Assembly: GCA_036402155.1 (NCBI GenBank)
Contig: DASWTL010000221.1
Location: forward strand, 968 to 64,967
Direction: 5' to 3'
DNA length: 64,000 bases
DNA from: Sphingobacteriaceae bacterium
Lineage (GTDB): Bacteria > Bacteroidota > Bacteroidia > Sphingobacteriales > Sphingobacteriaceae
Every line of letters begins with the position of its first letter. Position 1 is the stretch's first letter. The position numbers and the translations under genes are program-made. Positions 8,075 to 49,583 of this stretch are shown in pieces. The notes below the pieces were generated by a model. That model ran no database searches, had not been told where the DNA came from, and saw nothing but the letters and a program-made list of their open reading frames with translations.

Positions 8075-8204
8075 ATTAGTCTTCGCTTAAAAAGAAAACG
8101 GTATGATGTTACATGCAACAACCGGTATTGCTTTTAACTCTCAGATTAATTAGAATAAAAAACAAGAGAAATTCAGGACATAGTAGCACAAACTAAACAA
8201 TACC

Positions 8205-8520: not shown

Positions 8521-8544
8521 CGCGGCTATATTGTGCCTGTAATC

Positions 8545-10239
<1,695 letters not shown>

Positions 10240-10277
10240 TTATCTGCTAATTTGCAGTGATTTTTCCTATGAAGTAA

Positions 10278-11603: not shown

Positions 11604-11675
11604 AGCAGAGGATCGATCGTCCGAAAGCTGAACATAGTCGTATCTCAACATGACCTCTTTATAAAAACAGCATGC

Positions 11676-25872: not shown

Positions 25873-25895
25873 TACACTCAACATAGGAAAATAAT

Positions 25896-27374
25896 ATGTC
25901 ATCTCATCACGAATCGATATTAAGAGAACCATTAATTACCGGTGATAATATTACTTATGGTAAAATTACCGCAGATGTTCTGGTTCCTGTAGAAAATAAA
26001 CCTAATAAAGCATGGTGGATCGGATTTATCATAGCTGCTCTTGGCGCCCTGTTATGGGTTTTTTCAGTAAGTTATACTTTCTGGTTTGGAATTGGTGCCT
26101 GGGGATTAAATAAAACTGTAGGCTGGGCCTGGGACATCACCGGTTTCGTTTGGTGGGTAGGTATTGGTCACGCCGGAACCCTGATCTCTGCCGTATTATT
26201 GCTTTTCCGTCAGAACTGGCGGAACTCAATTAACCGGTCTGCAGAGGCCATGACTATCTTCGCCGTTATCTGTGCAGCGACTTATGTTCTTGCCCACATG
26301 GGTAGGGTTTGGTTGTTTTACTGGGCCTTGCCGCTTCCTAATCAGTTCGGATCATTATGGGTTAACTTTAACTCACCACTGGTTTGGGACGTATTTGCAA
26401 TCTCAACTTATTTCTCTGTATCCTTATTATTCTGGTACACGGGTTTATTACCGGATATTGCTACTATACGTGACCGTGCTACAGGTTTACGCCGCCGGAT
26501 ATATTCAATACTTTCTTTCGGATGGAACGGTTCAGTTAAAACCTGGCAGCGCTTTGAAGCGGTTTCATTAATACTTGCCGGTGTTTCTACCCCGCTTGTA
26601 CTTTCGGTTCACACCATTGTATCCATGGACTTTGCTACTTCAGTAATTCCCGGATGGCACACCACTATTTTCCCTCCTTATTTCGTTGCTGGGGCAATTT
26701 TCTCAGGATTTGCCATGGTGCAGACATTATTGCTGATTGCCCGTAAAGTAATGAATTTCGAGAACTACATCACCATGTTCCATATCGAGTCGATGAATAA
26801 GATCATCATGCTTACCGGATCTATTGTAGGTGTGGCATATCTTACGGAATTATTCATAGCATGGTATTCAGTTTCAGAATATGAGCAATATGCATTCTTA
26901 AACCGTGTAAGCGGGCCGTACTGGTGGGCATATTGGAGTATGATGACCTGTAACGTGATTTCTCCTCAGCTATTCTGGTTTAAAAAGATCCGGACCAGCA
27001 TTATGGCTTCATGGATCCTTTCAATTGTTGTAAACATTGGTATGTGGTTCGAGCGTTTTGTAATTATCGTAACTTCATTACACCGCGATTATATTCCATC
27101 CAGCTGGGCAATGTTCTATCCATCTGTAATCGATGTGACTTTGTTTATAGGTTCAATTGGATTGTTCTTCACACTGTTTTTACTGTTCCTACGGTTCTTA
27201 CCTGCTATTGCAATGGCCGAGGTTAAGCTACTGGTTAAGAGCTCAAGCCATCAGGAGAAGAAGAAACTGATCCGGGAGAATAAGGTGAGCAAAGAAGAGG
27301 CAGAGTACTATGTAGAATCATTGGAAGCGTACGATAGCGTACCTGAGTCAGACAGAGAATTAGCAAAAATCTAG
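25896..27374 (+). CDS. actC: Alternative complex III quinol-binding membrane subunit ActC (NrfD/PsrC family)
   Basis: 492-aa polytopic membrane protein in the canonical position after ActB. Confidence 0.85.
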
Positions 27375-27376
27375 AG

Positions 27377-27913
27377 ATGAGCAACACAAAATATATTTTA
27401 GCCCATTTTGAAGATCCTGATGAAATGATGCATGGGATCGACAAATTACAAGAGAATAACATCAGCATTTATGATGTTTTTACTCCTATGCCAATACACG
27501 GTATTGAAGCTAAACTGGGAATTAAGCGTTCACGCTTGCCAATAGCTGCTTTCCTTTTCGGCTTAACCGGAACATGTACAGCTATAGGCATGATCTATTA
27601 TATGCTGGTATATGACTGGCCTATGAATATTGGTGGAAAGCCTGCATTTGCAATGCCAAACTTTGTGCCTATCACATTTGAGTTAACAGTGCTTTTCTGT
27701 TCATTCGGAATGGTGTTTACATTTTTATTCGCTAACCACTTGTTTCCAGGCCGTGCGCCCAGAGTTATGGATCTTCGTGCAACAGATGATCGCTTCATTA
27801 TTGCAATCGATCCAAAAGCTAATCCATATCCTGATAAAATTAATGACCTTTTAAAAGATGCCGGTGCAGTAGAAATATTGCATAATGAAAGAAAATATGT
27901 TAGTTATGAATAG
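27377..27913 (+). CDS. actD: Alternative complex III subunit ActD (DUF3341)
   Basis: 178 aa with two central TMs, starting 3 nt after the actC stop. Canonical gene order. Confidence 0.8.
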   Translation: MSNTKYILAHFEDPDEMMHGIDKLQENNISIYDVFTPMPIHGIEAKLGIKRSRLPIAAFLFGLTGTCTAIGMIYYMLVYDWPMNIGGKPAFAMPNFVPITFELTVLFCSFGMVFTFLFANHLFPGRAPRVMDLRATDDRFIIAIDPKANPYPDKINDLLKDAGAVEILHNERKYVSYE

Positions 27914-28490
27914 AATAAGGATAGTAAGTGCTGTTGTTTTTACAATTGCTGTAACTGCGGTTATATCTTCTTGTTCAAATAAGCGTAGCACAGGCTGGGA
28001 GTTTGCCCGGAATATGTATGATCCGCTTGCTTACAATCCTGATCAGCCGAATAAGAATTTTAAGAACGGACAGACGGCTCAATTACCTCCTGCAAATACT
28101 TCGCCGATAGGATTTGATCGTGCGGAAGAGTATCCTGAAACCCAGGATGGTTACCTTGCAGCAAGCGCGGGAATGAAGAATCCGCTTGAAGTTAATACAG
28201 CTAATCTTCAATCAGGAAAAGTGCTTTATTTAAACATGTGTTCACATTGCCACGGCCCTCAGGGTAAAGGTGATGGATCCATTGTAAAGCTGGATAAGTT
28301 TCCTGCTCCGCCGTCTTATTCAACTGGAAATTCTTCCCGTGGCGGTGCCATGAAAGACCTTACTGATGGCAAAATATATCATACCATTACTTATGGATTA
28401 AATATGATGGGTCCGCATAAGAACCAGCTTGACCCTCAGGAACGGTGGAAGATCGTTATGTACGTTCACGAATTACAAAAATTACAATAG
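27885..28490 (+). CDS. actE: Alternative complex III monohaem cytochrome c subunit ActE (lipoprotein)
   Basis: Single CSHCH haem motif with a downstream Met ligand region (LNMMGP). Lipobox ISSC. The true start is probably ATG 27906, overlapping the actD stop. Confidence 0.8.
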   Translation: MKENMLVMNRIRIVSAVVFTIAVTAVISSCSNKRSTGWEFARNMYDPLAYNPDQPNKNFKNGQTAQLPPANTSPIGFDRAEEYPETQDGYLAASAGMKNPLEVNTANLQSGKVLYLNMCSHCHGPQGKGDGSIVKLDKFPAPPSYSTGNSSRGGAMKDLTDGKIYHTITYGLNMMGPHKNQLDPQERWKIVMYVHELQKLQ

Positions 28491-28505
28491 TTAATGCTAA
28501 GCTAA

Positions 28506-29726
28506 ATGGGAACACACAATCCTACACATAATTTTAAAGAACACTATGCGTTTTCGGGTAAAGCTAAAACCTGGAGCCTGATCGCTATTTTAATAGGTGT
28601 TGTTGCTATTGCATATGGGCTGTTTAGCCATAATGCTGAACGCACTTTCGCGAACCTGTTATTAATGGGATATTATATGACCTGCGTATGTGCTGCTGCA
28701 GCCTTCTTTCTTGCAGTTCAGTTTGTAGCGCAGGCTGGATGGTCGGCCGGATTATTACGGATACCTGAAGCTTTCTCAAAAACATTGCCTATTGCATCTA
28801 TAATACTTGTTGTAATTTGCGCTGCAGGGTTATTTTCGCATAATTTGTATCATCACTGGAACATGGAAGGTATCGCAGACCCTAACCATGAAAATTTTGA
28901 TGCTATCGTTGCTCAAAAAGCAAGTTATTTAAATGTGCCATTCTTTCTTGCACGTCTGGTCATATTTTTGGGTCTATATAGCATATTTGCTTATTTGTTT
29001 CCGAAATGGTCTAACCGTGAGGACCAAACCGGTGGATTAAGTAATTATAAGAAAAGCTATAAGTGGTCAGCCGTATTCCTGGTTATCTTTGGATTTACAA
29101 CTCCTATCTGGGCATTTGATACGATCATGTCCCTGGAAGCACACTGGTTTTCTACCATGTTCGGATGGTATAATTTTGCAGCCATGTGGGTAAGCGGATT
29201 ATGTGCAATTACACTTACTATCATCTTATTAAAGAAGTCGGGACATTTATCATGGGTTAACGAGAATCACCTGCATGATCTGGGAAAATTTATTTTTGCA
29301 TTCTCTATTTTCTGGACTTATGTATGGTTTTCGCAATTCCTTTTAATATGGTATGCAAATATTCCTGAAGAAACGGTATATTTTTATAAACGCTGGGAAC
29401 CCGAGTATAAGCCTTGGTTTTGGTTAAACATTATAATTAACTTTGTAGCGGCAATTCTGATCCTGATGACCCGTGACTCAAAACGTCAGATGAATACTTT
29501 GGCTTTCGTTTGTGTCATGCTTTTATTAGGTCATTGGCTGGATTATTACCTGATGATTATGCCTGGCACTGTTGAAGAACACAGAGGTTTCGGAATTATA
29601 GAGATAGGTACTGCTATAGGTTTTGCTGGGTTACTGGTTTTTCTAATGCTCAATAATCTAAGTAAAAAACCGTTAGTTCCTGCAAACCACCCTTTCCTTG
29701 AGGAAAGCTTACATCATCATATTTAG
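28506..29726 (+). CDS. actF: Alternative complex III membrane subunit ActF
   Basis: 406-aa polytopic membrane protein following actE in the canonical actABCDEF order. Confidence 0.8.
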   Translation: MGTHNPTHNFKEHYAFSGKAKTWSLIAILIGVVAIAYGLFSHNAERTFANLLLMGYYMTCVCAAAAFFLAVQFVAQAGWSAGLLRIPEAFSKTLPIASIILVVICAAGLFSHNLYHHWNMEGIADPNHENFDAIVAQKASYLNVPFFLARLVIFLGLYSIFAYLFPKWSNREDQTGGLSNYKKSYKWSAVFLVIFGFTTPIWAFDTIMSLEAHWFSTMFGWYNFAAMWVSGLCAITLTIILLKKSGHLSWVNENHLHDLGKFIFAFSIFWTYVWFSQFLLIWYANIPEETVYFYKRWEPEYKPWFWLNIIINFVAAILILMTRDSKRQMNTLAFVCVMLLLGHWLDYYLMIMPGTVEEHRGFGIIEIGTAIGFAGLLVFLMLNNLSKKPLVPANHPFLEESLHHHI

Positions 29727-29754
29727 AATTATCAAAGATTAAAGTACGCTAAAC

Positions 29755-31068
29755 GTGTTGTCAGATAAAAAAATGGGTTTAAATAAGTTTTTTAAGATCA
29801 TACCGGCATTCATTGTAATATTAACGTTTACATTGAACCTGTCTGTTAACGGACAAAATATTGATACTGCCGCGGCTGCTGCTGCCACCACTACCACTGC
29901 CACAACACAGGACACTGTAGCATCTGCAGTTCCTGTTGCAGCTCCTCTGATTGATACTTCAGTACCTGCTGCAGCAACTACTGAAGCGGATGCGCCGGTA
30001 GTTGATATGAAGCCGGTATATATGAGCGCAGCTTATTACACCCTGCTGTTTCTTTTGGGATGTATATTCATTGCCATTATTGGTAAAGTATTAAGGCTAT
30101 ATGAACTGAGCCGCGGGCTTCAGGGCAGAGAAGCTCATATCAACTGGAACAGGATACAAGCGATATTATTTGCAATTATCCTTGTGTTAAGCATGTATGG
30201 TACCTACTGGACATACGATGCTTATAGTTCAACTGTAACTACCGAAGCTGCAACAGTACATGGTGAGGAATTAGACTTTATGATGTGGGTAACCATTATT
30301 ATTACCACTATTGTTTTTGTTCTAACACACATCGCATTATTTGGATTCTCTTTTAAGTATGGCGGTTCAAGTACACGCAAGGCTTATTTCTATCCTCATA
30401 ATAATGCTTTAGAAAGACTTTGGACTATTGTACCTGCAATCGTACTTACGACCCTTGTAGTATTGGGATTCTTTACATGGAGAAACATTACCAACATTCC
30501 TGAATCGGAACAGAAAAAAGCATTGAAAATTGAAGTTGTTGGTGAACAGTTTAAGTGGAATATACGGTATGCAGGTGAGGATAACCAACTGGGCCAGAGA
30601 AACTTTAAGCTTACCAGTGCGAATAATAATCTGGGTATTGATTTTACTGATGTTAAAAGCTGGGATGATAAACTTGGCGGTGAAATCGTTCTTCCTGTAA
30701 ACCGGGCGGTAAGGGTTCAGATTGGCGCTAAGGATGTGCTTCATAGCTTTTATATCCCTCATTTCCGTGTGCAGTTAAACGCAGTTCCCGGAATGCCCAC
30801 ATATTTTCAGTTTACACCACGTTTTACAACCGCTCAGATGCGTGAAAAGTTAAATAAACCAACTTTTGACTACGTTTTATTGTGTGCTAAGATATGCGGA
30901 GCCGGTCATTATAACATGCAGACCAAAGTTACTGTTGTATCTCAACAGGAATATGAAGTGTGGCTCTCAAATCAGCAGTTATATTATAACGATGATGTAA
31001 AAAGAGAATTACAACAGGCTGAACAGAAGAAAGCAGCGGAATCAAAAACAATGGCATTAAATAATTAA
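29755..31068 (+). CDS. coxB: Cytochrome c oxidase subunit II (CuA subunit, no fused cytochrome c domain)
   Basis: CuA ligands HSFYIPHF ... CAKICGAGHYNM. Long Ala/Thr-rich N-terminal low-complexity region. The start is uncertain (GTG 29755 or ATG 29773). Confidence 0.9.
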   Translation: MLSDKKMGLNKFFKIIPAFIVILTFTLNLSVNGQNIDTAAAAAATTTTATTQDTVASAVPVAAPLIDTSVPAAATTEADAPVVDMKPVYMSAAYYTLLFLLGCIFIAIIGKVLRLYELSRGLQGREAHINWNRIQAILFAIILVLSMYGTYWTYDAYSSTVTTEAATVHGEELDFMMWVTIIITTIVFVLTHIALFGFSFKYGGSSTRKAYFYPHNNALERLWTIVPAIVLTTLVVLGFFTWRNITNIPESEQKKALKIEVVGEQFKWNIRYAGEDNQLGQRNFKLTSANNNLGIDFTDVKSWDDKLGGEIVLPVNRAVRVQIGAKDVLHSFYIPHFRVQLNAVPGMPTYFQFTPRFTTAQMREKLNKPTFDYVLLCAKICGAGHYNMQTKVTVVSQQEYEVWLSNQQLYYNDDVKRELQQAEQKKAAESKTMALNN

Positions 31069-31088
31069 TAAAAGAGCAACGGGAGAAT

Positions 31089-32981
31089 ATGTCAAGTACA
31101 GTTCAACATACATTAGAGCATACAGGCCACCACGGACATGATGATGCTCATTTACATCATAACGAATCTTTCCTGACTAAATATATTTTTAGCCAGGATC
31201 ATAAAATGATTGCCAAGCAGTTCCTGATAACCGGTATTATTATGGCCGTTATCGCGATGCTTTTATCTGTTTTATTCCGCCTTCAGTTAGGCTGGCCTGA
31301 TAAAACATTCCCGCTTTTGGAAACTTTTCTGGGAAGATTTGCTGAGGGAGGTCGCATTAAAGAGGACTTTTATCTTGCAATGGTTACCATTCACGGTACG
31401 ATGATGGTATTCTTTGTATTGACAGCAGGTTTGAGCGGTACATTCAGTAACCTTTTAATTCCATTGCAACTCGGAGCCAGGGATATGGCATCTCCGTTTA
31501 TAAACATGCTTTCTTATTGGTTCTTTTTAGTAGCCTGTATCATCATGATGGGATCTTTCTTTGTTGAGAGTGGCCCGGCAAGTGCAGGTTGGACAGTTTA
31601 TCCTCCACTATCATCATTACCAAAAGCTATTCCCGGATCAGGTACTGGTATGACCTTGTGGTTGATCAGTATGGTATTGTTTGTTGCCTCTTCCTTAATG
31701 GGAGCGCTGAACTACATTTCTACCGTGCTGAATATGCGTACCAAGGGAATGGATATGTGGAAGATGCCGCTTACTATCTGGGCTTTCTTTTTAACAGCGA
31801 TTGTAGGGGTTCTTTCATTCCCGGTGCTGGTTGCAGCGGTTGTGTTATTGATATTTGACAGAAGTTTCGGAACAAGTTTTTATTTATCTGATATAGTTAT
31901 TCAGGGTCAGGTTTTACCTAATCAGGGTGGAAGTCCGATCCTTTGGCAGCATCTTTTCTGGTTCCTGGGTCACCCGGAAGTTTATATCGTATTAATGCCG
32001 GCATTGGGCATTACTTCAGAAGTTATTGCTACAAATTCACGGAAGCCGATTTTTGGATACCATGCAATGGTTTACTCTTTAATCGGGATCACGGTATTAT
32101 CCTTTATTGTATGGGGACACCACATGTTTGTTACAGGGATGAATCCATTCCTTGGCGGAGTGTTCATGATCACGACTTTGATTATTGCAGTACCTTCAGC
32201 AGTTAAGACATTCAATTATCTGGCTACGCTATGGCGCGGTAATATTCGTTTTACTCCTGCCATGCTTTTTGCCATTGGTCTTGTGTCATTCTTTATTTCC
32301 GGCGGATTAACCGGTATTTTTTTAGGTAATGCAGCATTAGATATTAATCTTCATGATACTTACTTTGTAGTTGCCCACTTCCACCTGGTTATGGGGTCTG
32401 CAGCAATATTTGGTATGCTTTGCGGTGTTTACCACTGGTTCCCTAAAATGTTCGGTAGGATGATGGATGACAAACTGGGATATCTGCATTTTTGGCTGAC
32501 ATTTATAGGCGCCTATCTGGTATTCTTCCCAATGCATTTTATGGGTCTTGATGGTGTGCCGCGTCGTTATTATGCCTTTACCGAGTTCGAATTCATGAAA
32601 GAGTGGTTAACCGTAAATAAATTTATTTCGTGGGCTGCTATCTTATCGGCTTTAGCTCAGGTTGCATTCCTGTATAATTTCTTTCATTCTATATTTTATG
32701 GAAAGAAAGCAACACAAAACCCATGGAAATCAAATACACTTGAGTGGACTACTCCTGTTGAGCGTATTCATGGTAACTGGCCTGGCGAAATTCCAAGTGT
32801 TTACCGCTGGCCATATGATTATAGCAAGCCAGGTCATCATGACGATTTTATCCCGCAAACTACTCCGTTCTCCCAGACAATGAGTTCTAATCTTCCGCAT
32901 GATTTTGAAGGAAATCCGGAGGCAGAAAGAATACAAAGTGAATGGGAAGTTGAGCATGCACATAAGGAAGAGAAAGTTTAG
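31089..32981 (+). CDS. ctaD: Cytochrome c oxidase subunit I
   Basis: 630 aa with WFLGHPEVYIVLMPALG, WGHHMFVTG and VVAHFHLVM haem/CuB ligand regions. Confidence 0.97.
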   Translation: MSSTVQHTLEHTGHHGHDDAHLHHNESFLTKYIFSQDHKMIAKQFLITGIIMAVIAMLLSVLFRLQLGWPDKTFPLLETFLGRFAEGGRIKEDFYLAMVTIHGTMMVFFVLTAGLSGTFSNLLIPLQLGARDMASPFINMLSYWFFLVACIIMMGSFFVESGPASAGWTVYPPLSSLPKAIPGSGTGMTLWLISMVLFVASSLMGALNYISTVLNMRTKGMDMWKMPLTIWAFFLTAIVGVLSFPVLVAAVVLLIFDRSFGTSFYLSDIVIQGQVLPNQGGSPILWQHLFWFLGHPEVYIVLMPALGITSEVIATNSRKPIFGYHAMVYSLIGITVLSFIVWGHHMFVTGMNPFLGGVFMITTLIIAVPSAVKTFNYLATLWRGNIRFTPAMLFAIGLVSFFISGGLTGIFLGNAALDINLHDTYFVVAHFHLVMGSAAIFGMLCGVYHWFPKMFGRMMDDKLGYLHFWLTFIGAYLVFFPMHFMGLDGVPRRYYAFTEFEFMKEWLTVNKFISWAAILSALAQVAFLYNFFHSIFYGKKATQNPWKSNTLEWTTPVERIHGNWPGEIPSVYRWPYDYSKPGHHDDFIPQTTPFSQTMSSNLPHDFEGNPEAERIQSEWEVEHAHKEEKV

Positions 32982-39176: not shown

Positions 39177-39209
39177 ATGCAAACAGAAAATCCTGTTTGC
39201 ATTTTTTTT
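39177..39209 (+). terminator. Rho-independent terminator after the OmpA-family gene
   Basis: ATGCAAACAG / 6-nt loop / CTGTTTGCAT gives a 10-bp perfect stem, followed by T7. Confidence 0.85.
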
Positions 39210-39419: not shown

Positions 39420-40370
39420 ATGAAATCAAAGACTACTTTTTGGCAACGGATTGGAATGCACGACTGGTTCTTAAACAGTGAGAACACAGTTTCGAAAGTT
39501 AAACCCAAAATCCTTACGCCTGATGATGTATATAAATATATAATTGAAAAGTTTAAAGAATCCATTGGTCAGTTATCCTTTGCCGACCGTGTGGTTTTTT
39601 ATCACGAGTTTATTATTTGCTTCAACGCCGAGGATTATCGTCAGTTTATGGATAATAAAAAAGGGATCTTCGGATTAATTGTGCATGAGTCGGTTAAACG
39701 ATTTTACCAGTTGCTGAAAGAATATCGTGAGCTTGGAAAAACTGTAGAACCTTCAAGCAGCAAATGGGTTTTCCGGTTTGTTTCACATCCTGATTATGCC
39801 CCCGGTGATAAAGGATTTATTGGCAAGTTATTGCCCGGAACAAGTCAGAAAGAAGAAAACCTGCGAGTTACTTTTATTCCCCGGCAAACGGGAATTGCAC
39901 AAACTTTTGATATAAATCAGGATATCCTTAAAGGTTTTACATTTTACAGCGAAGGATATTATGAAGTGCCATATGTAGAAGAATTGGAATATGATGAAAA
40001 AAAAGTAAGCAATGTAGTACAGCCAGGCTTCGCCCGGTTTGAAACTATCCTACCTGAAAAAGAATTTGCCGGTCGTAAGGTAGAGTATTTTATGAAGGAT
40101 GAAGAGATTATTGTTTCAGGGAAAGATGAAACCAGGGAATCATCAAACATCTTTCGCATACCCTCAGATTGGGTAAATACACCACACTTACGGATCCGCT
40201 ATAACAAGTCGGATAATAAATTTTACCTGACTTCTTTTGGTGAAAAAACAATTTTGAATGAAAAAGAAGTAAAGCGCTCCGATATTAATTTGCCGGAATG
40301 GATAGAATTGCCGGTTAATTCCAGGATTCTTCTGAATGGCATAATTGGTATTAATATTTTTAAATCGTAA
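39420..40370 (+). CDS. FHA-domain protein (unknown N-terminal domain, C-terminal FHA-like domain)
   Basis: The C-terminal ~90 aa (IFRIPSDWVNTPHLRIRYNKSDNKFYLTSFGEKTILNEKEV...ILLNGIIGINIF) fits the FHA pattern, although the canonical GR...SR.H residues are degenerate. First gene of the kinase/phosphatase operon. Confidence 0.55.
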   Translation: MKSKTTFWQRIGMHDWFLNSENTVSKVKPKILTPDDVYKYIIEKFKESIGQLSFADRVVFYHEFIICFNAEDYRQFMDNKKGIFGLIVHESVKRFYQLLKEYRELGKTVEPSSSKWVFRFVSHPDYAPGDKGFIGKLLPGTSQKEENLRVTFIPRQTGIAQTFDINQDILKGFTFYSEGYYEVPYVEELEYDEKKVSNVVQPGFARFETILPEKEFAGRKVEYFMKDEEIIVSGKDETRESSNIFRIPSDWVNTPHLRIRYNKSDNKFYLTSFGEKTILNEKEVKRSDINLPEWIELPVNSRILLNGIIGINIFKS

Positions 40371-40377
40371 TAAGACC

Positions 40378-40476
40378 ATGTCATATTTACTGTCGCTTGC
40401 TTTACTGGCTATCTGCATCTTATTACTTATAGCACACTTTATGGATATAAAAAATACGCATAAAAGGAATGACTGA
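40378..40476 (+). CDS. Unannotated 32-aa single-TM micro-protein (MSYLLSLALLAICILLLIAHFMDIKNTHKRND)
   Basis: Below the ORF-track cutoff. The ATG lies 7 nt after the FHA gene stop. Its stop (40474-40476) overlaps the PP2C start (40469) by 8 nt (ATGACTGA). Hydrophobic core followed by a basic tail. Confidence 0.5.
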   Translation: MSYLLSLALLAICILLLIAHFMDIKNTHKRND

Positions 40477-41899
40477 AAACTATTTTGGAATTACCGATAC
40501 CGGAAAGGTACGTGGCAATAATGAAGATGCTTTTATTGCCGGTAAGGTAATGAATAACAGGTTTACTCTGGCCTGTGTTATTGATGGGGTTGGAGGGTAT
40601 TCCGGAGGCGAGGTTGCAGCGGATATTGCAAGGAAATCCATTCTTGACTATTTCAGTACTCCTTCCGGAGAAATTATTTCCATGATGAAAGATTCATTCA
40701 TCCTGGCTAATGATAAGATCTATGAAGAAAAGCAGCAGGTAAAGGAGCATGATAGTATGGCCTGTGTACTTACACTTGCCATCATTGATCTGGAAAATAA
40801 TCAGTTTTATTATGCACATGTAGGCGATACCCGGCTATACCTGTTAAGGGACAAATCATTAGTAAAATTATCTAAAGACCATTCATTTGTTGGGTTTCTG
40901 GAAGATACAGGAAGGCTTTCTGAAGATGCAGCTATGCGCCATCCAAAACGCAACGAGATAAATAAAGCACTTGGGTTTGGTATGCAACCTAAAAATACCG
41001 ACGATTATATAGAAACCGGTCAATCACCGTTTCTTCCAGGCGACATGCTTCTTTTATGCAGTGATGGTCTGACTGATATGGTCAATAAAAGTGATATCAC
41101 ATCTATTTTGGTCAGCGACAGCTCTTTGGAAGATAAAGGAAAGCAACTGATAGATGCTGCTAATAAGGGTGGTGGCAAGGATAATATTACGGTTGTACTT
41201 GTACATAATGATAAGCCCCCTGTACAACAGGAAGCAACAAAGCCTTCAGGAGTAAAAAAAAAAGAAATCCTAAATGATCAATCCACCCCACCTGCTTTGA
41301 TAGAAAATAGAGAAAAATCAGTCGTGCTTCCGGATAAAAAGAAAAAAAGAAAATGGCTGATCCCATTCTTGGCTCTGGGGGCTATATTGATAATTGCATC
41401 ATTATTATGGTGGAAAAACCGCGAACCCACAAAGAATGAAGAAGAAACGATGGTAATGCAAATGCGGGAAACCCGGAATGGGCAGGAAATAAAACTGCAG
41501 GCAATCATTAATACTCTGATTGGTGATACGCTATTCCTTTCTGATTCTGTATTTACACAACCACTCATAATTAGTGATACAATAACCATCAGCAGGGACT
41601 CATTATATATTAAATCAAGCGGAAATATGGTTTTAAAAAGAGATTCTGCCTATACCGGCCCGGCAATTTTGCTTTCCGAAAACTGTAAACATATTGTAAT
41701 TGATAGCCTTCTTTTTGAAGATTTTAAGGTTGGAATATTAGTATTCAATAATGCCCTCCAATTAAAGAATGTTCGGTTTAATAACTGTTCAACAGCAGTG
41801 CAGACCATGTTTACATTCCCTGCTAACCGTTATGTAACTGGCAGTATTATGGATATTTCATTTAAAACAGATTCTATACCTAATAAAATTAATGAATAA
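40469..41899 (+). CDS. Membrane-anchored PP2C-family Ser/Thr phosphatase with extracytoplasmic C-terminal domain
   Basis: PP2C motifs GNNEDAF, VIDGVGGYSGG, HVGDTRLY, LLLCSDGLTD and GGKDNITVVLV. TM at aa 296-315, then a 160-aa C-terminal domain with short beta-repeat character. Confidence 0.9.
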   Translation: MTENYFGITDTGKVRGNNEDAFIAGKVMNNRFTLACVIDGVGGYSGGEVAADIARKSILDYFSTPSGEIISMMKDSFILANDKIYEEKQQVKEHDSMACVLTLAIIDLENNQFYYAHVGDTRLYLLRDKSLVKLSKDHSFVGFLEDTGRLSEDAAMRHPKRNEINKALGFGMQPKNTDDYIETGQSPFLPGDMLLLCSDGLTDMVNKSDITSILVSDSSLEDKGKQLIDAANKGGGKDNITVVLVHNDKPPVQQEATKPSGVKKKEILNDQSTPPALIENREKSVVLPDKKKKRKWLIPFLALGAILIIASLLWWKNREPTKNEEETMVMQMRETRNGQEIKLQAIINTLIGDTLFLSDSVFTQPLIISDTITISRDSLYIKSSGNMVLKRDSAYTGPAILLSENCKHIVIDSLLFEDFKVGILVFNNALQLKNVRFNNCSTAVQTMFTFPANRYVTGSIMDISFKTDSIPNKINE

Positions 41900-44800
41900 T
41901 ATGATCGTGGACTCACCCCGGATTAAGGCCAGGAAAGGTGAGCGGATATTTTTAGTAATGATCACGATTGTTTTAGGACTACTGTTTCTAAGACTTTTTT
42001 ATGTTTTACAGCGTGATTTTGAAGATGTTAACCAACGGCTTCGTGCAGGTACAATGATCAACCTGAATGATTCAAATCCGGGTAAGCGCATAAGAACATT
42101 ATTGGAAAAAGGTTACTATTTTGAAGATCAAAAAGACATTGACCTTATTGAGGCGGTTGTTACAGATCGACTTAACCCTGAAGATAATGATTTTGACAAT
42201 ATCGGTGAGCTGAATAAGCAAAAATACAATGTTATTGCAGACGATGCTTTTATGCAGGGAGGAAGCTCATTCAAAAACCGGGTAGCTACCTCGCGGTCTG
42301 TTCTGGGGTATACGGGAGATGACTCCACACGATTTTCGCAGGAAAGAAGAAGCCCGCCTACTTTGCCCGCAACGGTAAATGCAAATATGGGTAAGTATTC
42401 TATTTCAGGAAAGATTATTAACAAAGAAAAGGATCCCGTTTCGGGTGTTTTGGTAAAACTTGAAATGATTTTGCCTCAGGATAGCGTTTACAGTGATCAG
42501 GTACAGGAAGTAGCCAGGGAGATCATTGAAAAAGGTGCCGGTCTGAAGAAATCATTCGTGCTGGATTCAACCGGTAAGCGACAACTACAATCTTTAACCG
42601 CATATACCCGAACAAATAGTGACGGGAAGTATTCATTTTTAAACCTTCCGGATGATAAAGCCTTTGAAGTGTTGCCTTTACAGCCCGGATATCAGTTTGG
42701 CGCTTCAAAAGGGGTGCAGGAGTTGGATAACAATGCAGAGTTTACATTTATGCAATCACCGCATACGATCCGGTTACTATCTGGCAGGGATTTTAATATT
42801 TTAAAAAGAGAGCGTTCGATTATTGTTCGAACACCGGCTGAATTTAACCGCTGGTACTGGATTATTGCCGGCAGTTTCATTGCAGGATTCCTACTGGTGC
42901 ATCTTTTACTTACGTACAGGTTTCCCGAAGCTGACCAGTTAATTATTCCTGTATTAATGCTTCTAACCGGACTATCATTGATTACATTGTTAAGCCTCCA
43001 GGATCCACTGAGAGATCGTTTCCTTGCAAAGGATACCCTGTTCTATTTCTTTATGGGACTACTGGGAATCTGTGTCATGATGTTCTTTAATATGCGACGG
43101 TTCACAGTTGATTCAGCATTGTACCGGATGTTTTTTTTAAGAGGAAACCGTAAAGCTGCAAATGGCTGGCCATGGGCTATTGTGGCTATCGGTCTTTTAA
43201 TATTAACCATCATATTCGGAACCGGTCCTGAAGGAAGCGGTGTAAAAGTTAACCTGTTTGGATTTCAGCCAAGTGAGATTGTCAAGTTTTGCATTATTCT
43301 TTTTCTGGCAGGTTTTTTTGCCGCCAATGAAAAGTTTATCAGCGAATATTTGAGCTGGCGAAAAAGATGGGCTTTCTTCTCCTTTGCGCTGGTGGCAATA
43401 GTTATTTCTATACTTCTTTTCCTTATTCTGGGAGACCTGGGGCCTGCAATGGTAGTTTGTTTCACATTTATTGTTCTTTTTTCATTTTCGCGCGGCGATT
43501 TTATGTTCATGATCGGCTCGGTGGTTTTATATGTTCTGGCGGCATGGACAATTAATAGCATATGGCTAGCAACGGCAATAACAGCTGTTGTACTAACTCT
43601 TGCAATGGTTTTCCAGCGAAAGCAGATCAGTGAATCCGCAATTATGACCTTGTTGCTTATTGCAGGATTTTTATTGATTGATCAGATACCTTTTTTGAGC
43701 AACCTCTTCCCCGGCCCAATGCAACGTTTAGTAGAGCGTAAGGCTATATGGGAAGATGCCTGGAATAATGAAGTATTTGGCGGTGACCATGTAGCAAACG
43801 GAATCTGGGCTATGTCAAGCGGCGGTATAACAGGTCAGGGCGTTGGTGAGGGATTTTCAAAAACTATTCCGGAGGCTCATACCGATATGATTTTGCCTGC
43901 CATAGGTGAGGAATTTGGATGGACAGGCATTGTATGTATTTTTATCCTGTTCCTGATCTATCTTCACCGGTCCATAATTGTTGGTAGAAAAACCGGAGCT
44001 CCGTTTCTGTTTTATTTATGTACAGGTATCGGAGTCAGCACATTTGTGCAATTTTTACTAATTGCCGGAGGTTCTACCGGTGCTTTACCGCTGTCGGGTG
44101 TCTCACTGCCATTGGTAAGCTATGGCGGATCTTCGCTTGTAGCTAACTTATTTGCCGCTGGATTCTTATTATCTGCATCTGGTGTTAAAGGTACAGCTAT
44201 ACAGATGACCTATATCACCAAGCAGCAGGATAGAAACCTGGTTCCGGCCCTTGTAGCAGCCTGTATAGGCATCTTTTTGCTTACGGTCAATGTTTCCCGA
44301 TACCTTTTTAATAATAAAAAATGGGTGGTTCAGCCTTCACTGGTTGCCGATAGAAGTGGTTTAAGGATGTTTAGTTATAACCCCCGGATTGCCATTTTAA
44401 TGAACAGGCTTCAGGCTGGATCTATTTATGACCGTGATGGCCGTATACTGGCAACAAGTAAACCGGAACTGATTAAGAAACAGCAAAGAATCTTAAATGT
44501 AGCCGGAGTTCAGAATTATAATCTGGATTCAGCTATGCATAAACGCTCAGAGCGTTACTATCCTTTTGCTGAACAGATGTTTTTCTGGACAGGTGACGCA
44601 AACACAGGTGTGTTCAGAGGGGGTACAAATGGTTATTTTGCTGAATATGAACATGCTGCAGAACTTCGCGGTTTTCAAACTCCGGTAGTTAATTATAATG
44701 TAATAGCACATCGCTTCCGTGAAGATCGTTTCCTGCCACGGGGTGTAAAGGAAATGAATATTACCAAAAGAGATTATTCCGCTCTGGCACCGTTGTTATT

Positions 44801-46073
44801 GGCTGGTATAAACAGTAAGGAAGTTGAAGAATTCAAAAAAAGAAACCGCGACATAAAACTTACTATGGATGCTCAGTTACAAACCAGCATCCAGAAGTCG
44901 ATGGCCATGGATGACTCTCTGAAAGATAACCGGGTTTCTGTAGTAATTATGGAGAGTTCTACCGGAGATGTGCTCAGTTCAGCTTCCTATCCATTGCCGC
45001 CAATTAAAAATTGGGAGCAGTTGACAATGAGTACTCAGGAACAAAATAAACTATCGCAGTGGGTAACAACAGTTGATCTTGGATTTACTTATGCTACACA
45101 GCCCGGATCTACTGCCAAAGTAGCAACCTCCCTTGCAGCATTAAATAAGATGGGCTTGACTGCAGTAAGTAAAAAGTATACGGTCAGCTCATTTGAACGC
45201 ATCCGAACAAAAGGCATTGAACCGGATGAAACCGGCGTAATAAATCTTGAACGGGCATTGGTAAAATCTAATAACGTTTATTTTATCAAACTGGCCAATG
45301 AAGAAAAACTGGAGGAAGAGATGGTTAACGTGTATTTAAAAACAGGAATGTTTTTACGTGGCGTAGGGGGGTATTATTTTGAAAAGCAGAACAGTAATGA
45401 TCAGCAGGAAAATAAGTGGCGTGAGTTATGGCGTAAAACCGAATTTGTCACAAAGCCTGCGTATGATCCGAACAGAATACGCCGTACCCGGGCAAAAGGT
45501 ATCTCTGGAATGGCGTGGGGGCAGGGCGAATTGATTGCTACCCCTGCAGCTGTTGCAAGGCTTGCAGCCGGTGTAGCCAATAGAGGCTTGTTAATACCTA
45601 ACCGGTATGTGTTGCAGGTTAGCAATACAGCATTTCCTGTGAAAACCGGGATACCCTTGGTAAATGATCCGAAGTATGCAGAGATATTAACGGATTTTAT
45701 GATCAAGCAGAGCGCGCCGAAAGTAGCAACTCTGGGAATATCGGTAGCGGGAAAAACCGGTACACCGGAACGCATCTGGAAAAAAGAGCGGATCAATGAC
45801 GGATGGTATGTTTTCTTTGCTCCTAAAGCAACAGGTCAAGGGCATATTGTGGTTTGTATCAGGGTCGAATCAACCAAGGGGTCTAGTGATGCAGTTAAAG
45901 TGGCCGGACAGCATGTGGTGCCATTCTTGTTGCAAAAGCGATATATAAAAGGTTTTGTGAACATAGTCCCTCAACAGCAGAATTTGCCGACAGTACGTGA
46001 TACTTTGCAAAACACTGCACCCATAAATACTGTTCCGGATAGTAATAACAATATTGAGCAAGAAGTTAATTAA
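41892..46073 (+). CDS. Fusion protein: N-terminal TM plus ~280-aa extension (CarboxypepD_reg-like beta-sandwich), SEDS (RodA/FtsW) glycosyltransferase, and class-B penicillin-binding transpeptidase
   Basis: One uninterrupted 1393-aa ORF. SEDS motifs FQPSEIVKF, PEAHTDMILPAIGEEFGW and LPLVSYGGSSLV (aa ~320-765). A linker TM (aa 783-799) and pedestal GSIYDRDGRILATS follow. Transpeptidase motifs are STAK (nt 45108), SNN (nt 45267) and KTGT (nt 45753). Confidence 0.9.
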   Translation: MNNMIVDSPRIKARKGERIFLVMITIVLGLLFLRLFYVLQRDFEDVNQRLRAGTMINLNDSNPGKRIRTLLEKGYYFEDQKDIDLIEAVVTDRLNPEDNDFDNIGELNKQKYNVIADDAFMQGGSSFKNRVATSRSVLGYTGDDSTRFSQERRSPPTLPATVNANMGKYSISGKIINKEKDPVSGVLVKLEMILPQDSVYSDQVQEVAREIIEKGAGLKKSFVLDSTGKRQLQSLTAYTRTNSDGKYSFLNLPDDKAFEVLPLQPGYQFGASKGVQELDNNAEFTFMQSPHTIRLLSGRDFNILKRERSIIVRTPAEFNRWYWIIAGSFIAGFLLVHLLLTYRFPEADQLIIPVLMLLTGLSLITLLSLQDPLRDRFLAKDTLFYFFMGLLGICVMMFFNMRRFTVDSALYRMFFLRGNRKAANGWPWAIVAIGLLILTIIFGTGPEGSGVKVNLFGFQPSEIVKFCIILFLAGFFAANEKFISEYLSWRKRWAFFSFALVAIVISILLFLILGDLGPAMVVCFTFIVLFSFSRGDFMFMIGSVVLYVLAAWTINSIWLATAITAVVLTLAMVFQRKQISESAIMTLLLIAGFLLIDQIPFLSNLFPGPMQRLVERKAIWEDAWNNEVFGGDHVANGIWAMSSGGITGQGVGEGFSKTIPEAHTDMILPAIGEEFGWTGIVCIFILFLIYLHRSIIVGRKTGAPFLFYLCTGIGVSTFVQFLLIAGGSTGALPLSGVSLPLVSYGGSSLVANLFAAGFLLSASGVKGTAIQMTYITKQQDRNLVPALVAACIGIFLLTVNVSRYLFNNKKWVVQPSLVADRSGLRMFSYNPRIAILMNRLQAGSIYDRDGRILATSKPELIKKQQRILNVAGVQNYNLDSAMHKRSERYYPFAEQMFFWTGDANTGVFRGGTNGYFAEYEHAAELRGFQTPVVNYNVIAHRFREDRFLPRGVKEMNITKRDYSALAPLLLAGINSKEVEEFKKRNRDIKLTMDAQLQTSIQKSMAMDDSLKDNRVSVVIMESSTGDVLSSASYPLPPIKNWEQLTMSTQEQNKLSQWVTTVDLGFTYATQPGSTAKVATSLAALNKMGLTAVSKKYTVSSFERIRTKGIEPDETGVINLERALVKSNNVYFIKLANEEKLEEEMVNVYLKTGMFLRGVGGYYFEKQNSNDQQENKWRELWRKTEFVTKPAYDPNRIRRTRAKGISGMAWGQGELIATPAAVARLAAGVANRGLLIPNRYVLQVSNTAFPVKTGIPLVNDPKYAEILTDFMIKQSAPKVATLGISVAGKTGTPERIWKKERINDGWYVFFAPKATGQGHIVVCIRVESTKGSSDAVKVAGQHVVPFLLQKRYIKGFVNIVPQQQNLPTVRDTLQNTAPINTVPDSNNNIEQEVN

Positions 46074-46871: not shown

Positions 46872-48572
46872 ATGGGCAAAGTATTTACAATAACAGAAGG
46901 TTTAGAGAATATGGGCGCTATGCGAACCGGTGGGCAGGGTTCTGTTTACAAAGGGAAGCGTATTGGGGAGATAATAACTGCTGTAAAGCTATTACCCACA
47001 CCCATACATACAGAGAGTAACGATGATAAAAATTTCAGAGATTTTCAAAATGAGGTAGAGAAATTAAAAAAGGTAAATGAGGAACCCAACCCCAATGTGG
47101 TTAAGATTTTAAACTCAGGGATTACCGAAAGTGGAAGTTTTCCATTTATTGAAATGGAGTATATCGAAGGGCCAGATATGGAAGAACTCCTGAAGCCACC
47201 TCATGATCCTGTTTTTACAATTAATGATGTTATTAAAGTTGCGCATCAGTTATCCAATGCATTGGCGCATTGTCATAAAGTAAATGTAAAGCATGGTGAT
47301 ATAAAAAGTAACAACGTCAAGTTTAATGTGAATACAGGTAATTACATTTTGCTTGATTTCGGGTTGGCTGTAATGTCTGATGAACAACGCCGTACCAGCT
47401 TAAGACATGCAGGCGCTATAGAGTTTATGGCTCCGGAACAGAATGAGGGTGTCATGCTCTTTCAGACTGATATCTACAGCTTTGGCGTGATTTTATATGA
47501 ATTACTTGCCGGCCGTGTACCATTTCCATTATCAGATAATGGCGAAACAGCCCGAAATAATGTAATGGTCTCTCATATGGAGAGTCCTGTGCCTGATGTA
47601 ATGGCTCTGCGCAGAGAAAATCTACCTAAAAATTGGTCCGATGAAAAAAGGGAACGTGAAATGCAGGTTCCACAGTGGCTTCTCGCTATCATAGCTAAAT
47701 GCCTCGAGAAAGATCCTAAAAACAGGTATGTGAATGGTGTAGAACTGCATGAAGCTATTTTGCTGAGTAGTACCACCATGATTGGAAATGATGACAGTAC
47801 AGGCAGTGCAGGTGTGCTTCAAAGCGAAAATGAGCGGATGCAGATGCTGGCATTGCAATATCAAGAGGCAGCTGCAGAAAAAGAACGCCAACTGGCATCA
47901 CTCAAAGGAATTTTATCTCAAAAGGAAGCAGAGCTGGCTGCTCTTAAAGGTACAACGCGTGTTCCGACGTCTGAAAATGGATCGCGGGTTAAACTTTCTA
48001 AACCTGCATTTTTTGCTCTGCTATTTATTTTGGCCTGTCTTGCAGCCTTTTCCGGCTATTCATTACTGTCTAAAAATACGAGTGATACCACTATCCTGTC
48101 ATCAGGATCAGATACTTCACAGGCTTCTACAGACACGAATGATGTGAATAAAACTTCAAATGTCATATCCGAAACAGAAAATAAAGAAGATACCAGTTCC
48201 ATTATTGATACATCCAACCGGGCTGAAAATGTTGATGGCGTTCCACAAGATCAAACTAACGAAGGCGAAGAGATAAATAGTAATGAACCAACGCAGGCAG
48301 AACAGAACGATACCATTGCTGATACTCCGCCCGAAGCTGCTCAACCACCGGTTACCAGGGCTAAGAAATACACTCTCGCCGTCTCAAAAGCATATTTTTA
48401 TGATCAGCCGGAAGGAAGTTCACGCAGGAATACGTTTCTGGTATTTTCAAATAATGCAGAGTTAACGGCACTCGAAGATAGAAACGGCTTCATTTATGTT
48501 GTATTTTTTAATACGCAGGGTGAAATAACAAAGGGCTGGCTTCGGAAAAGGGATCTCAGGAGGATTAATTGA
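46872..48572 (+). CDS. Hanks-type Ser/Thr protein kinase, bitopic, with low-complexity spacer and SH3-like C-terminal ectodomain
   Basis: Start taken at ATG 46872, 1 nt after the FHA gene stop. Motifs: GGQGSVYKG loop, AVK lysine, HGDIKSNNV catalytic loop (Gly replaces the Arg of HRD), DFG, APE. A coiled coil and a TM (FFALLFILACLAAFSGYSLL) follow, then a Ser/Thr/Asn/Glu-rich spacer and a ~65-aa beta-rich domain. Confidence 0.9.
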   Translation: MGKVFTITEGLENMGAMRTGGQGSVYKGKRIGEIITAVKLLPTPIHTESNDDKNFRDFQNEVEKLKKVNEEPNPNVVKILNSGITESGSFPFIEMEYIEGPDMEELLKPPHDPVFTINDVIKVAHQLSNALAHCHKVNVKHGDIKSNNVKFNVNTGNYILLDFGLAVMSDEQRRTSLRHAGAIEFMAPEQNEGVMLFQTDIYSFGVILYELLAGRVPFPLSDNGETARNNVMVSHMESPVPDVMALRRENLPKNWSDEKREREMQVPQWLLAIIAKCLEKDPKNRYVNGVELHEAILLSSTTMIGNDDSTGSAGVLQSENERMQMLALQYQEAAAEKERQLASLKGILSQKEAELAALKGTTRVPTSENGSRVKLSKPAFFALLFILACLAAFSGYSLLSKNTSDTTILSSGSDTSQASTDTNDVNKTSNVISETENKEDTSSIIDTSNRAENVDGVPQDQTNEGEEINSNEPTQAEQNDTIADTPPEAAQPPVTRAKKYTLAVSKAYFYDQPEGSSRRNTFLVFSNNAELTALEDRNGFIYVVFFNTQGEITKGWLRKRDLRRIN

Positions 48573-48626: not shown

Positions 48627-49583
48627 ATGAACTGGATAGACCTGATACTTATCGTTGTAATCCTTTTTTCTGTTTATTCAGGATGGAGAAAGGGTTTTAT
48701 AAACGGAATGTTACAGCTTATCTCATGGGTTCTGACACTCATATTCAGTTTCTTGCTGTACAAGTACCTGGCAGATTTCCTGCAAAACAATATTAAATCA
48801 TTGGGGATCTGGGCAACGCCACTAGCATTCCTTGCTATGGTTTTTATATTCAGAATGGTTTTTGATATTTTATTTACGCTGCTTACGCGAAATATATCAT
48901 TGAATGTACATTTTAGCAGGGCTAACAAAGTATTAGGAATTATTCCAGGTGCACTCGCAGGGTTTATTTATGCAGCGCTGTTTGCTACCATATTTATGCT
49001 TTTACCCTGGGTTAACAGATTTTTTGAAAGTAGCCGTGAAAGTATTGTGGCTACATTCTTAACCCGACAGGTTGATCGTCTGGAAACCAAATTGTCTCCG
49101 GTGCTTGATAAATCTGTAAGACAAACGCTTAATAAGCTTACAGTTGAGCCGGGATCTTCGAAAACGATAGAATTAGACTTTACCGTTTCAGATCCTGCAA
49201 TCAGAAGCGACCTGGAGCGGGAAATGCTGGTACTTTTAAACAGAGAGCGAATAAAGGCAGGCTTAAAACCTTTTAAAGCAGACCCTGATCTGGTACCTGT
49301 TGCAAGGGCACATTCACTGGATATGTTTCAAAGAGGCTATTTTTCACATATTACTCCCGAAGGAAAAGCACCTTCAGACCGGATAAGAGCTGCCAAAGTA
49401 CCTTTTATAACTGCTGGTGAAAATCTGGCACTTGCACAAACGCTGGGGATAGCTCATAACGGACTGATGAATTCGCCGGGACATCGCGCAAACATTCTGC
49501 ACCCCGCATTCAGGCGCGTAGGCATTGGTATTCTGGACGGAGGACCTTACGGAATAATGGTAACCCAGAATTTTCGAAACTGA
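48627..49583 (+). CDS. CvpA-family membrane domain fused to a CAP/SCP (YkwD-like) domain
   Basis: N-terminal 4-TM region (MNWIDLILIVVILFSVYSGWRKGF is typical of CvpA). The C-terminal CAP motifs are ARAHSLDM, GYFSH, GENLA and HRANIL. Confidence 0.8.
   Translation: MNWIDLILIVVILFSVYSGWRKGFINGMLQLISWVLTLIFSFLLYKYLADFLQNNIKSLGIWATPLAFLAMVFIFRMVFDILFTLLTRNISLNVHFSRANKVLGIIPGALAGFIYAALFATIFMLLPWVNRFFESSRESIVATFLTRQVDRLETKLSPVLDKSVRQTLNKLTVEPGSSKTIELDFTVSDPAIRSDLEREMLVLLNRERIKAGLKPFKADPDLVPVARAHSLDMFQRGYFSHITPEGKAPSDRIRAAKVPFITAGENLALAQTLGIAHNGLMNSPGHRANILHPAFRRVGIGILDGGPYGIMVTQNFRN

Follow-up and report, generated by a model that had tools for sequence, protein, structure and literature searches.

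How SEDS glycosyltransferases and their penicillin-binding proteins of class B (bPBPs) are switched on is an active question, which has so far been studied with two-chain complexes and artificial fusions. The locus described here raises the question of what a natural single-chain form of this pair does and how it is controlled. It lies in a 64,000-nucleotide stretch of DNA from a Sphingobacteriaceae bacterium (GenBank assembly GCA_036402155.1, contig DASWTL010000221.1), referred to below as the window, in which one open reading frame (ORF) joins a SEDS domain to a bPBP. On the whole, the best explanation, and in our judgment a probable one, is that this fusion is an accessory, phospho-regulated single-chain synthase that forms the centre of a gene cassette and acts beside the canonical SEDS–bPBP pairs.

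To date, natural SEDS–bPBP chimeras have been reported as 'bifunctional class B synthases', 117 of which were found by an InterPro search (PMC12516126, Microlife, September 2025). They include a 1341-residue chimera from Pedobacter ginsengisoli, which is flanked by a kinase and a phosphatase and is reported to coexist with FtsI/FtsW and MrdA/RodA in the same organism (PMC12516126). The original prediction, which saw in the fusion a potentially useful structural and biochemical model, therefore overstated its novelty and its value as a model, and the gain over the literature is incremental, because the 2025 report already covers both the fusion and its kinase and phosphatase neighbours. The present analysis adds the size of the family; the presence of one SEDS domain with a transmembrane (TM) hairpin, of pedestal motifs and of an N-terminal module; the five-gene cassette; and triple fusions with a PP2C phosphatase.

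Architecture of the fusion protein

The ORF runs without interruption over 1393 codons, in agreement with the original prediction that no stop codon separates the two enzymes. The features of the ORF are as follows, with residues numbered on the fusion protein (aa, amino acids; AF2, AlphaFold2).

41892–46073 (+): fusion ORF (N-terminal module, SEDS and bPBP), 1393 codons, ATG start
41934–42917 (+): N-terminal module, comprising TM0a (aa ~15–41), a predicted periplasmic domain (aa ~42–320) and TM0b (aa 321–342); hydropathy, AF2
42930–44201 (+): SEDS (FtsW/RodA/SpoVE) glycosyltransferase domain, aa ~347–770; Pfam PF01098, PDB matches, Foldseek
43548–43700 (+): family-specific insertion of two TM helices, aa ~553–603; break in the FtsW alignment, split Pfam match, AF2
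44178–44309 (+): junction, with a ~20-residue cytoplasmic linker (aa 763–782) and the bPBP membrane anchor (aa 783–806); hydropathy
44310–44936 (+): divergent class B N-terminal (pedestal) region, aa ~807–1015; motif positions
44937–45911 (+): transpeptidase domain, aa 1016–1340; Pfam PF00905, invariant residues, Foldseek

Both catalytic domains exceed their Pfam thresholds, FTSW_RODA_SPOVE (PF01098) with 156.4 bits against a cut-off of 26.4 and Transpeptidase (PF00905) with 79.8 bits against 22.1, which supports a natural fusion of a SEDS protein and a class B PBP. Motif mapping located each motif quoted in the original prediction once and at its proposed place: FQPSEIVKF at aa 458–466, PEAHTDMILPAIGEEFGW at aa 660–677, LPLVSYGGSSLV at aa 739–750, GSIYDRDGRILATS at aa 843–856, STAK at aa 1073–1076, SNN at aa 1126–1128, and KTGT at aa 1288–1291. 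Likewise, the linker TM segment proposed at aa 783–799 agrees with a hydrophobic segment at aa 781–806 in the hydropathy profile. Judged from its sequence, the gene encodes a single-chain peptidoglycan synthase. Three features had been overlooked in the original prediction, namely the periplasmic module at the N-terminus, the pair of helices inserted into the SEDS domain and the surrounding kinase/phosphatase/FHA cassette, and these are the more informative ones.

Conservation was assessed in an alignment of 41 relatives with a mean column identity of 32%. Within the SEDS domain, Q459 and D665, the latter being the Asp of HTD in PEAHTD in the large extracellular loop, are invariant, and E462 and K465 are conserved in at least 90% of the sequences (FQPSE corresponds to aa 458–462, at TM4). 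D665, E462 and K465 are presumably equivalent to the essential residues seen in RodA structures. In the transpeptidase domain, S1073 and K1076 of S-T-A-K, S1126 and N1128 of S-N-N, and K1288 and G1290 of K-T-G-T are all invariant. The proposal that the catalytic residues are conserved thus held at D665 and at each of these six transpeptidase positions.

The SEDS half matches FtsW in the PDB with an E-value of 3.9e-23 when a single sequence is used and of 1.3e-37 with a family profile, and it also matches RodA chains. Foldseek superimposed the modelled SEDS part on FtsW and RodA with target TM-scores of 0.49–0.60. Neither of the NCBIfam equivalog cut-offs was reached: the score was 154.1 bits against 337.5 for ftsW (TIGR02614) and 136.8 bits against 336.7 for rodA_shape (TIGR02210). 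By these scores, the half is a SEDS protein, yet an orthologue of neither RodA nor FtsW.

The alignment with Pseudomonas aeruginosa FtsW is split in two, with aa 425–551 and 616–762 of the fusion corresponding to chain residues 87–210 and 224–375, respectively. The Pfam SEDS match likewise falls into two stretches. On these alignments, the break is an insertion of about 50 residues, which follows SEDS TM7 and precedes the large extracellular loop. A tandem of two SEDS domains was considered and rejected, since each stretch matches a different part of one and the same profile, the two complementing each other. The AF2 model places helices at aa 537–554, 557–574 and 581–598 in this region, and hydropathy and AF2 together suggest ten core SEDS helices plus the inserted pair (aa ~556–574 and 583–601), with the topology preserved and pLDDT (predicted local distance difference test) values of 50–80 in the membrane part. 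A cytoplasmic loop within the insertion, K576 K577 .. E581 S582 A583 (window 43617–43640), is nearly invariant among the 41 relatives; E581 is found in 36 of them, and position 582 is Ser or Thr in 95%. This loop is a candidate site for regulation or phosphorylation.

Across 12 homologues, no gaps interrupt the alignment of the linker that connects the last SEDS helix to the bPBP anchor, and S763 at the start of the linker is conserved in 37 of the 41 sequences. AF2 draws a single continuous helix over aa 769–807, with low confidence. The bPBP half has a single membrane anchor (TM aa 781–806) and no match to GT51 (PF00912) in Pfam. The expectation that such a fusion is topologically permissible was upheld by two lines of evidence: engineered SEDS–bPBP fusions are functional (PMC6207328), and relatives with an N-terminal PP2C domain place the N-terminus inside the cell.

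The region between the anchor and the transpeptidase domain contains three pedestal motifs: motif 1 is GSIYDRDGRILATS (aa 843–856), which the original prediction had named and which is both present and conserved, motif 2 is RYYP (aa 888–891), and motif 3 is GYFAEYEHAAELRG (aa 914–927). R888, Y890 and P891 are invariant in the 41 sequences, and D847, R848, G850, L853, A854, G914, L925, R926 and G927 are conserved in at least 90%. We take these motifs to be the counterparts of the N-module motifs of class B PBPs, which read RGxIxDRxG-like, RxYP, and GxxGxE..LxG-like (G..E..LRG here). Pfam PBP_dimer (PF03717) remained below threshold on this region (15.8 bits against 24.4), and PBPA_dimer (PF21922) gave no Pfam match in the fusion. 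An AF2 model of aa 310–1393, built on an alignment of 25 sequences that are all at least 71% identical, reached a mean pLDDT of 52.5 and a predicted TM-score (pTM) of 0.41, and its transpeptidase part alone was good enough for Foldseek. This part matches Neisseria gonorrhoeae PBP2 and Burkholderia pseudomallei PBP3 with target TM-scores of 0.68–0.72.

A conserved module of about 345 residues precedes the SEDS domain, whose profile begins at aa ~350. It was modelled within aa 1–810 (mean pLDDT 63), a model that serves for the N-terminal domain and the helix count and not for fine packing. Most ten-residue blocks over aa 40–310 have pLDDT values of 70–93, with dips to 46–69, and the domain consists of a helical sub-domain (helices within aa 63–153) followed by a beta-sandwich part (strands within aa 161–294). 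Pfam gave a weak CarboxypepD_reg match only. Since Foldseek returned only weak matches, to pilin-type and dioxygenase folds with beta-sandwiches (E-values of 2e-3 to 2e-2, query TM-score of about 0.1), the domain is left without a specific functional assignment. The module was detected by blastp in 111 of 150 distant representatives. N57, L58, N59, T314 and P315 are invariant in 12 close homologues (alignment A1), and only R313 is also invariant in the 41-sequence alignment (A6). Four relatives carry a cytoplasmic PP2C domain directly before the first TM segment; therefore, the N-terminus should be cytoplasmic, and the domain of about 280 residues that follows TM0a should consequently be periplasmic. 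A shorter N-terminal module without the beta-sandwich was seen in the three representatives of about 1100 residues that were read (P0242, P0245 and P0256).

The five-gene cassette

The fusion gene is the third of five co-directional and tightly packed genes, which encode, in order, an FHA-like protein, a membrane PP2C phosphatase, the fusion, an FHA protein and a membrane Ser/Thr kinase. The four partners of the fusion are the following.

39420–40370 (+): gene 1, 316-residue cytoplasmic protein with a degenerate FHA-like C-terminus; no TM segment, hhalign
40469–41899 (+): gene 2, membrane PP2C Ser/Thr phosphatase; Pfam PP2C and PP2C_2, TM segment
46082–46870 (+): gene 4, 262-residue FHA protein with an N-terminal domain and an FHA domain at aa ~150–257; Pfam, hhalign
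46872–48572 (+): gene 5, membrane Ser/Thr protein kinase; Pfam Pkinase (123 bits), TM segment

The conservation of this arrangement was evaluated by a genome scan with one genome per species, in which 424 pattern-matched stretches encode a relative; 80 of these were retained for locus counts. Each of the 80 loci comes from a different species genome and carries the full-length fusion. They belong to Sphingobacteriaceae, Chitinophagaceae (Flavisolibacter and Paraflavisolibacter) and Nibrella. The PP2C gene is present in all 80 loci. Gene 1, which immediately precedes it, and the FHA gene are each present in 78, and the kinase gene in 76, where it follows the FHA gene or lies upstream of gene 1. 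The genes that flank the cassette in the window (DUF2461, OmpA-like and CvpA-CAP) are kept in only 1 to 3 of the 80 loci. The same gene order surrounds the fusion of a Bacteroides sp. metagenome-assembled genome (MAG), which is only about 30% identical, and two unannotated neighbours at that locus are homologous to the small proteins of the window, with hhalign probabilities of 95.9% for the 316-residue protein against the gene at the same position and 93.7% for the other pair. At the loci of more distant fusions, Pfam recognises FHA, PP2C and kinase genes, and one of the FHA proteins shows faint similarity to FhaA_N. Literature searches for such a cassette in Bacteroidetes found no papers.

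The FHA nature of the two small proteins was established only by way of distant cassette homologues. The 262-residue protein scores 18.2 bits with Pfam FHA, just under the cut-off of 20.7, and matches, with an hhalign probability of 96.6% and an E-value of 6.7e-10, the protein that takes its position in a distant cassette (L085) and that Pfam recognises as FHA. Its G155-R156, S187-R-Q-H190 (S187-x-x-H190) and N215 are invariant in 19 orthologues. The 316-residue protein is also below the Pfam FHA threshold (15.1 bits), and its C-terminus matches the FHA core of an L085 protein, itself recognised by Pfam FHA and faintly by FhaA_N, with a probability of 86.5%. Profile searches of both proteins against PDB sequences gave nothing meaningful, and a profile–profile comparison of one with the other was insignificant. 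A terminator-like hairpin lies upstream of gene 1, at 39177–39202.

The phosphatase consists of a catalytic domain (aa 1–246), a TM segment at aa ~294–316 and an extracytoplasmic C-terminal domain. It scores 206.7 bits with the NCBIfam Stp1/IreP-type model, under the cut-off of 230, and its stop codon overlaps the ATG of the fusion by 8 nucleotides. The kinase contains, in order, the kinase domain, a coiled region, a TM segment (aa ~398–418, numbered on the listed ORF), a low-complexity linker and a small extracytoplasmic C-terminal domain. Its ORF is listed from a TTG at 46821, which gives a 50-nucleotide overlap with the FHA gene; the likely start is the ATG at 46872 (MGKVF...), right after the stop of the FHA gene at 46870. 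The C-terminal ~160 residues of the phosphatase (41351–41896) have no significant Pfam match, only faint pectate-lyase or beta-helix-like ones, and the extracytoplasmic C-terminal part of the kinase (48075–48569) has no significant Pfam match either; both are possible sensor domains. A beta-helix protein occurs as a separate gene in the distant L085 cassette.

In four representatives (P0219, with 1679 residues, P0144, P0164 and P0247), a PP2C domain is located on the same polypeptide as the synthase. By the gene-fusion argument, this suggests that the phosphatase works with the synthase. Such PP2C–SEDS–bPBP triple fusions span 1389–1772 residues (L081–L083, gene at 8001–13040). At the locus of P0219, a small GT51 'Transgly' gene lies upstream and a Glycos_transf_4 (MraY/WecA-type) gene lies downstream. 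A second, shorter class of fusion (L085, gene at 7001–10414; P0242; also P0245 and P0256) is Ala/Arg-rich, with about 1100–1140 residues. Its cassette holds an FHA protein with faint FhaA_N similarity, the beta-helix protein, a kinase and a second FHA protein, and further downstream are genes for a CarboxypepD_reg outer-membrane protein, a GT51 protein and a stand-alone transpeptidase.

In content and order, the cassette resembles the actinobacterial fhaA-fhaB-pstP-rodA-pbpA-pknA-pknB locus (PMC6554272 for PstP), as both combine FHA proteins, a membrane PP2C with an extracytoplasmic tail, a SEDS protein, a bPBP and a membrane Ser/Thr kinase. The cassette differs in that SEDS and bPBP are fused, a single kinase without PASTA domains is present, PBPA_dimer is missing and the host is a Gram-negative member of Bacteroidota. 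The resemblance lies in organisation only and is best treated as an analogy, not as proven common descent.

Proposed function and competing explanations

In the mechanism proposed here, the SEDS domain would polymerise lipid II and the transpeptidase would cross-link the nascent strand, roles that are assigned because the catalytic residues are intact and the functions of both families are known. The covalent link would fix a 1:1 stoichiometry of SEDS and bPBP. The kinase would respond to an extracytoplasmic cue and phosphorylate regions of the synthase or its partners that lie in the cytoplasm, phospho-threonine would be read by the FHA proteins, and the PP2C phosphatase would reset the phosphorylation state. 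The fusion would thus serve as a conditionally activated accessory wall synthase beside the canonical RodA–PBP2 and FtsW–FtsI pairs, and it is probably switched by Ser/Thr phosphorylation. We infer the accessory role from the equivalog scores below cut-off, the cassette context, the variable flanks and the report on P. ginsengisoli.

Several observations weigh against this explanation. Synthase activity is read from conserved residues, and the AF2 model of aa 310–1393 is too poor to judge the packing of the anchor on SEDS TM8/TM9 or the fold of the pedestal. No family-wide conserved threonine was found in the predicted cytoplasmic segments of the 41 sequences, where the best-conserved hydroxyl residues are S582 and S763. 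Since FHA domains prefer phospho-threonine, the phospho-target may be another protein. The FHA-like domain of the 316-residue protein is without the canonical Gly-Arg and Ser-x-x-His. A Pfam search found no PASTA domain in the kinase, which scores 157 bits with PknB_PASTA_kin against a cut-off of 450. Finally, neither half of the fusion was found to be specifically close in sequence to actinobacterial RodA or PbpA, and Mycobacterium tuberculosis PbpA is not the best PDB match for the bPBP half.

Among the alternatives, the one that survives best, though it is unlikely, holds that the transpeptidase half, instead of routinely cross-linking, acts mainly in sensing or as a scaffold, or else tolerates beta-lactams as an enzyme of low affinity, and that the cassette provides a bypass under beta-lactam or envelope stress. 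PBP2a and PBP5, both of low affinity, are the solved structures closest in sequence to the bPBP half, and a spare synthase under kinase control would suit a stress bypass. However, this similarity is weak (E-value of about 1e-10 over ~160 residues), a profile search places MrdA, PBP2 and PbpA nearly as high, the structural matches are to generic class B transpeptidase domains, and SxxK, SxN and KTG are all intact.

It is also improbable that the fusion is the primary synthase of elongation (RodA–PBP2) or division (FtsW–FtsI), merely fused into one chain. The intact catalytic residues would suit such an enzyme, and for some of the published chimeras, which adjoin mreB or rlmH, a role in cell elongation is predicted (PMC12516126). 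Against this, the scores of the fusion are far under the NCBIfam ftsW, rodA and mrdA equivalog cut-offs, and its gene belongs to a kinase/phosphatase/FHA cassette instead of lying beside mreBCD or the dcw cluster; no mre or dcw gene was found among the annotated ORFs of the window. The flanking genes vary between genomes, and P. ginsengisoli is reported to retain both canonical pairs (PMC12516126).

A further explanation, to which very little probability is given, accepts an active synthase and regards the kinase, phosphatase and FHA genes as unrelated to it or as regulators of something else. It would account for the missing conserved threonine in the cytoplasmic loops of the synthase, and phosphorylation itself is a prediction from gene context. 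Yet, the cassette is kept in 76 to 80 of 80 species, whereas its flanks change, and the five genes are also found together where the synthase is only ~30% identical. The overlap of the PP2C stop with the synthase start and the four single-polypeptide representatives point in the same direction.

Beyond the accessory, phospho-regulated synthase, a broader view can be put forward tentatively, with rather less than even confidence: the cassette may be a self-contained, phospho-switched spare synthase that is widespread in Bacteroidota and that corresponds, in Gram-negative bacteria, to the actinobacterial PknB/PstP/FhaA–RodA–PbpA module, of which it is possibly an ancient relative. The kinase and the PP2C phosphatase would then act directly on the synthase or on the two FHA readers to switch wall synthesis on in a certain state of the envelope, and the triple fusion would be the extreme form, with phosphatase, polymerase and cross-linker in one protein. 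If this is true, the cassette would offer a natural system, built on one chain, in which the gating of a SEDS–bPBP machine by Ser/Thr phosphorylation can be studied. The cassette possibly occurs in other phyla as well, going by an impression of composition only.

A role in defence or in a mobile element was rejected, as the window holds housekeeping genes for succinate dehydrogenase, phosphoglucose isomerase, cytochrome oxidase and isoleucyl-tRNA synthetase. The likeness of the kinase to MADS6 and PglW was set aside as generic kinase-domain similarity, far under the cut-offs of both.

Spread of the family and known relatives

SEDS and bPBP genes are commonly adjacent. That a lost stop codon or a frameshift, through a sequencing or assembly error, merged two such neighbours in this contig can be dismissed: one error could join them, and one homologue of 1597 residues (P0006) has an internal duplication that resembles an assembly error, but the same ORF with an ungapped, conserved linker recurs in the genomes of 80 species, independent of one another, and in protein clusters of diverse origin, which number in the hundreds and reach down to ~30% identity, and the short relatives look contig-truncated. 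The uninterrupted ORF in the genomes of other species thus bears out the junction as genuine. The duplication in P0006 extends from the end of the inserted hairpin to SEDS TM10 (alignment A1, columns ~571–806) and is probably an assembly artefact of that record.

How far the fusion has spread, a matter that the original prediction had left to database searches, is answered by a wide distribution, with full-length fusions in all 80 loci and in all 120 evaluated matches. The latter are the best matches in a collection of 5.8 billion proteins; they have 1352–1597 residues, carry both Pfam domains and share the same uninterrupted architecture. Their sources are Pedobacter, Mucilaginibacter, Daejeonella, Nibrella and many metagenomes. 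For more distant relatives, a library clustered at 50% identity was searched with a query of 1084 residues and the best 150 representatives were considered. At least 1000 residues are present in 129 of these, most of which align over most of the query with 30–62% identity, and the clusters include Emticicia, Niabella, Mycovorax, Porphyromonas sp. and Bacteroides sp. The short entries start at residue 1–3 of a partial alignment and look like contig-truncated fragments rather than split genes.

The published chimeras and the fusion described here are alike in placing SEDS and transpeptidase in one ORF, an architecture that is confirmed here in independent genomes. The P. ginsengisoli chimera is also similar in size and likewise comes from Sphingobacteriales. 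As in P. ginsengisoli, the gene has kinase and phosphatase neighbours, here with PP2C directly upstream and the kinase two genes downstream. Pedobacter species in the 80-locus set carry the same fusion family with 64–73% identity, and the P. ginsengisoli chimera very likely belongs to it, judged by size, taxon and neighbours, not by sequence. That chimera was described as rare, with 'two GTase domains in tandem' and 'lacking the pedestal' (PMC12516126). In contrast, the present analysis finds a single SEDS domain split by an insertion of ~50 residues and conservation of the three class B N-module motifs. Instead of a rarity, it finds a family that is large and in which an N-terminal periplasmic module and a five-gene cassette are conserved.

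Engineered fusions follow the same plan of SEDS, short cytoplasmic linker and bPBP. An Escherichia coli RodA-(GGGS)3-PBP2 fusion and an engineered fusion of the Bacillus subtilis sporulation SEDS–bPBP pair are functional, and engineered fusions of this order work in vivo and, in vitro, polymerise lipid II (PMC6207328). Terms for a RodA–PBP2 fusion also appear in the paper on the E. coli RodA–PBP2 structure (PMC10449877). Unlike the present protein, the engineered fusions are artificial, derive from canonical pairs and have no N-terminal module, TM insertion or phospho-signalling partners. The suggestion that a fusion of this kind could be a useful structural and biochemical model is sensible, but it is not new, since engineered RodA–PBP2 fusions are already in use as models for biochemistry and structure. 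The canonical RodA–PBP2 and FtsW–FtsI complexes (PDB 6PL5, 8TJ3, 8BH1 and 8P1U) have the same catalytic folds and residues and the same single N-terminal anchor of the bPBP; they differ in consisting of two chains and in having neither the N-terminal periplasmic module nor the extra TM hairpin.

The family shows a SEDS–bPBP pair that is kept as one chain in the company of a kinase, a phosphatase and FHA readers, with the phosphatase fused on in some lineages. It offers a compact, genetically defined system for the phospho-regulation of wall synthesis in Gram-negative bacteria, and the fusion may be a stable single-chain target for structural work.

Directly downstream of the cassette, at 48627–49583 (+), lies a gene for a 318-residue protein with a CvpA (colicin V production) membrane domain and a CAP/SCP domain, which is conserved only in the closest relative (L060). 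Elsewhere in the window, 3595–5667 (-) encodes a signal-transducer-like protein of 690 residues, in which a BlaR1-type peptidase M56 domain is combined with two TonB_C matches. A respiratory block at 22852–32981 (+) comprises an iron-sulfur protein (1006 residues) and an NrfD-like membrane subunit, followed by cytochrome oxidase subunits II and I. The arrangement of the iron-sulfur and NrfD-like genes resembles alternative complex III, and the block, together with the genes for succinate dehydrogenase, phosphoglucose isomerase and isoleucyl-tRNA synthetase, marks an ordinary chromosomal context.

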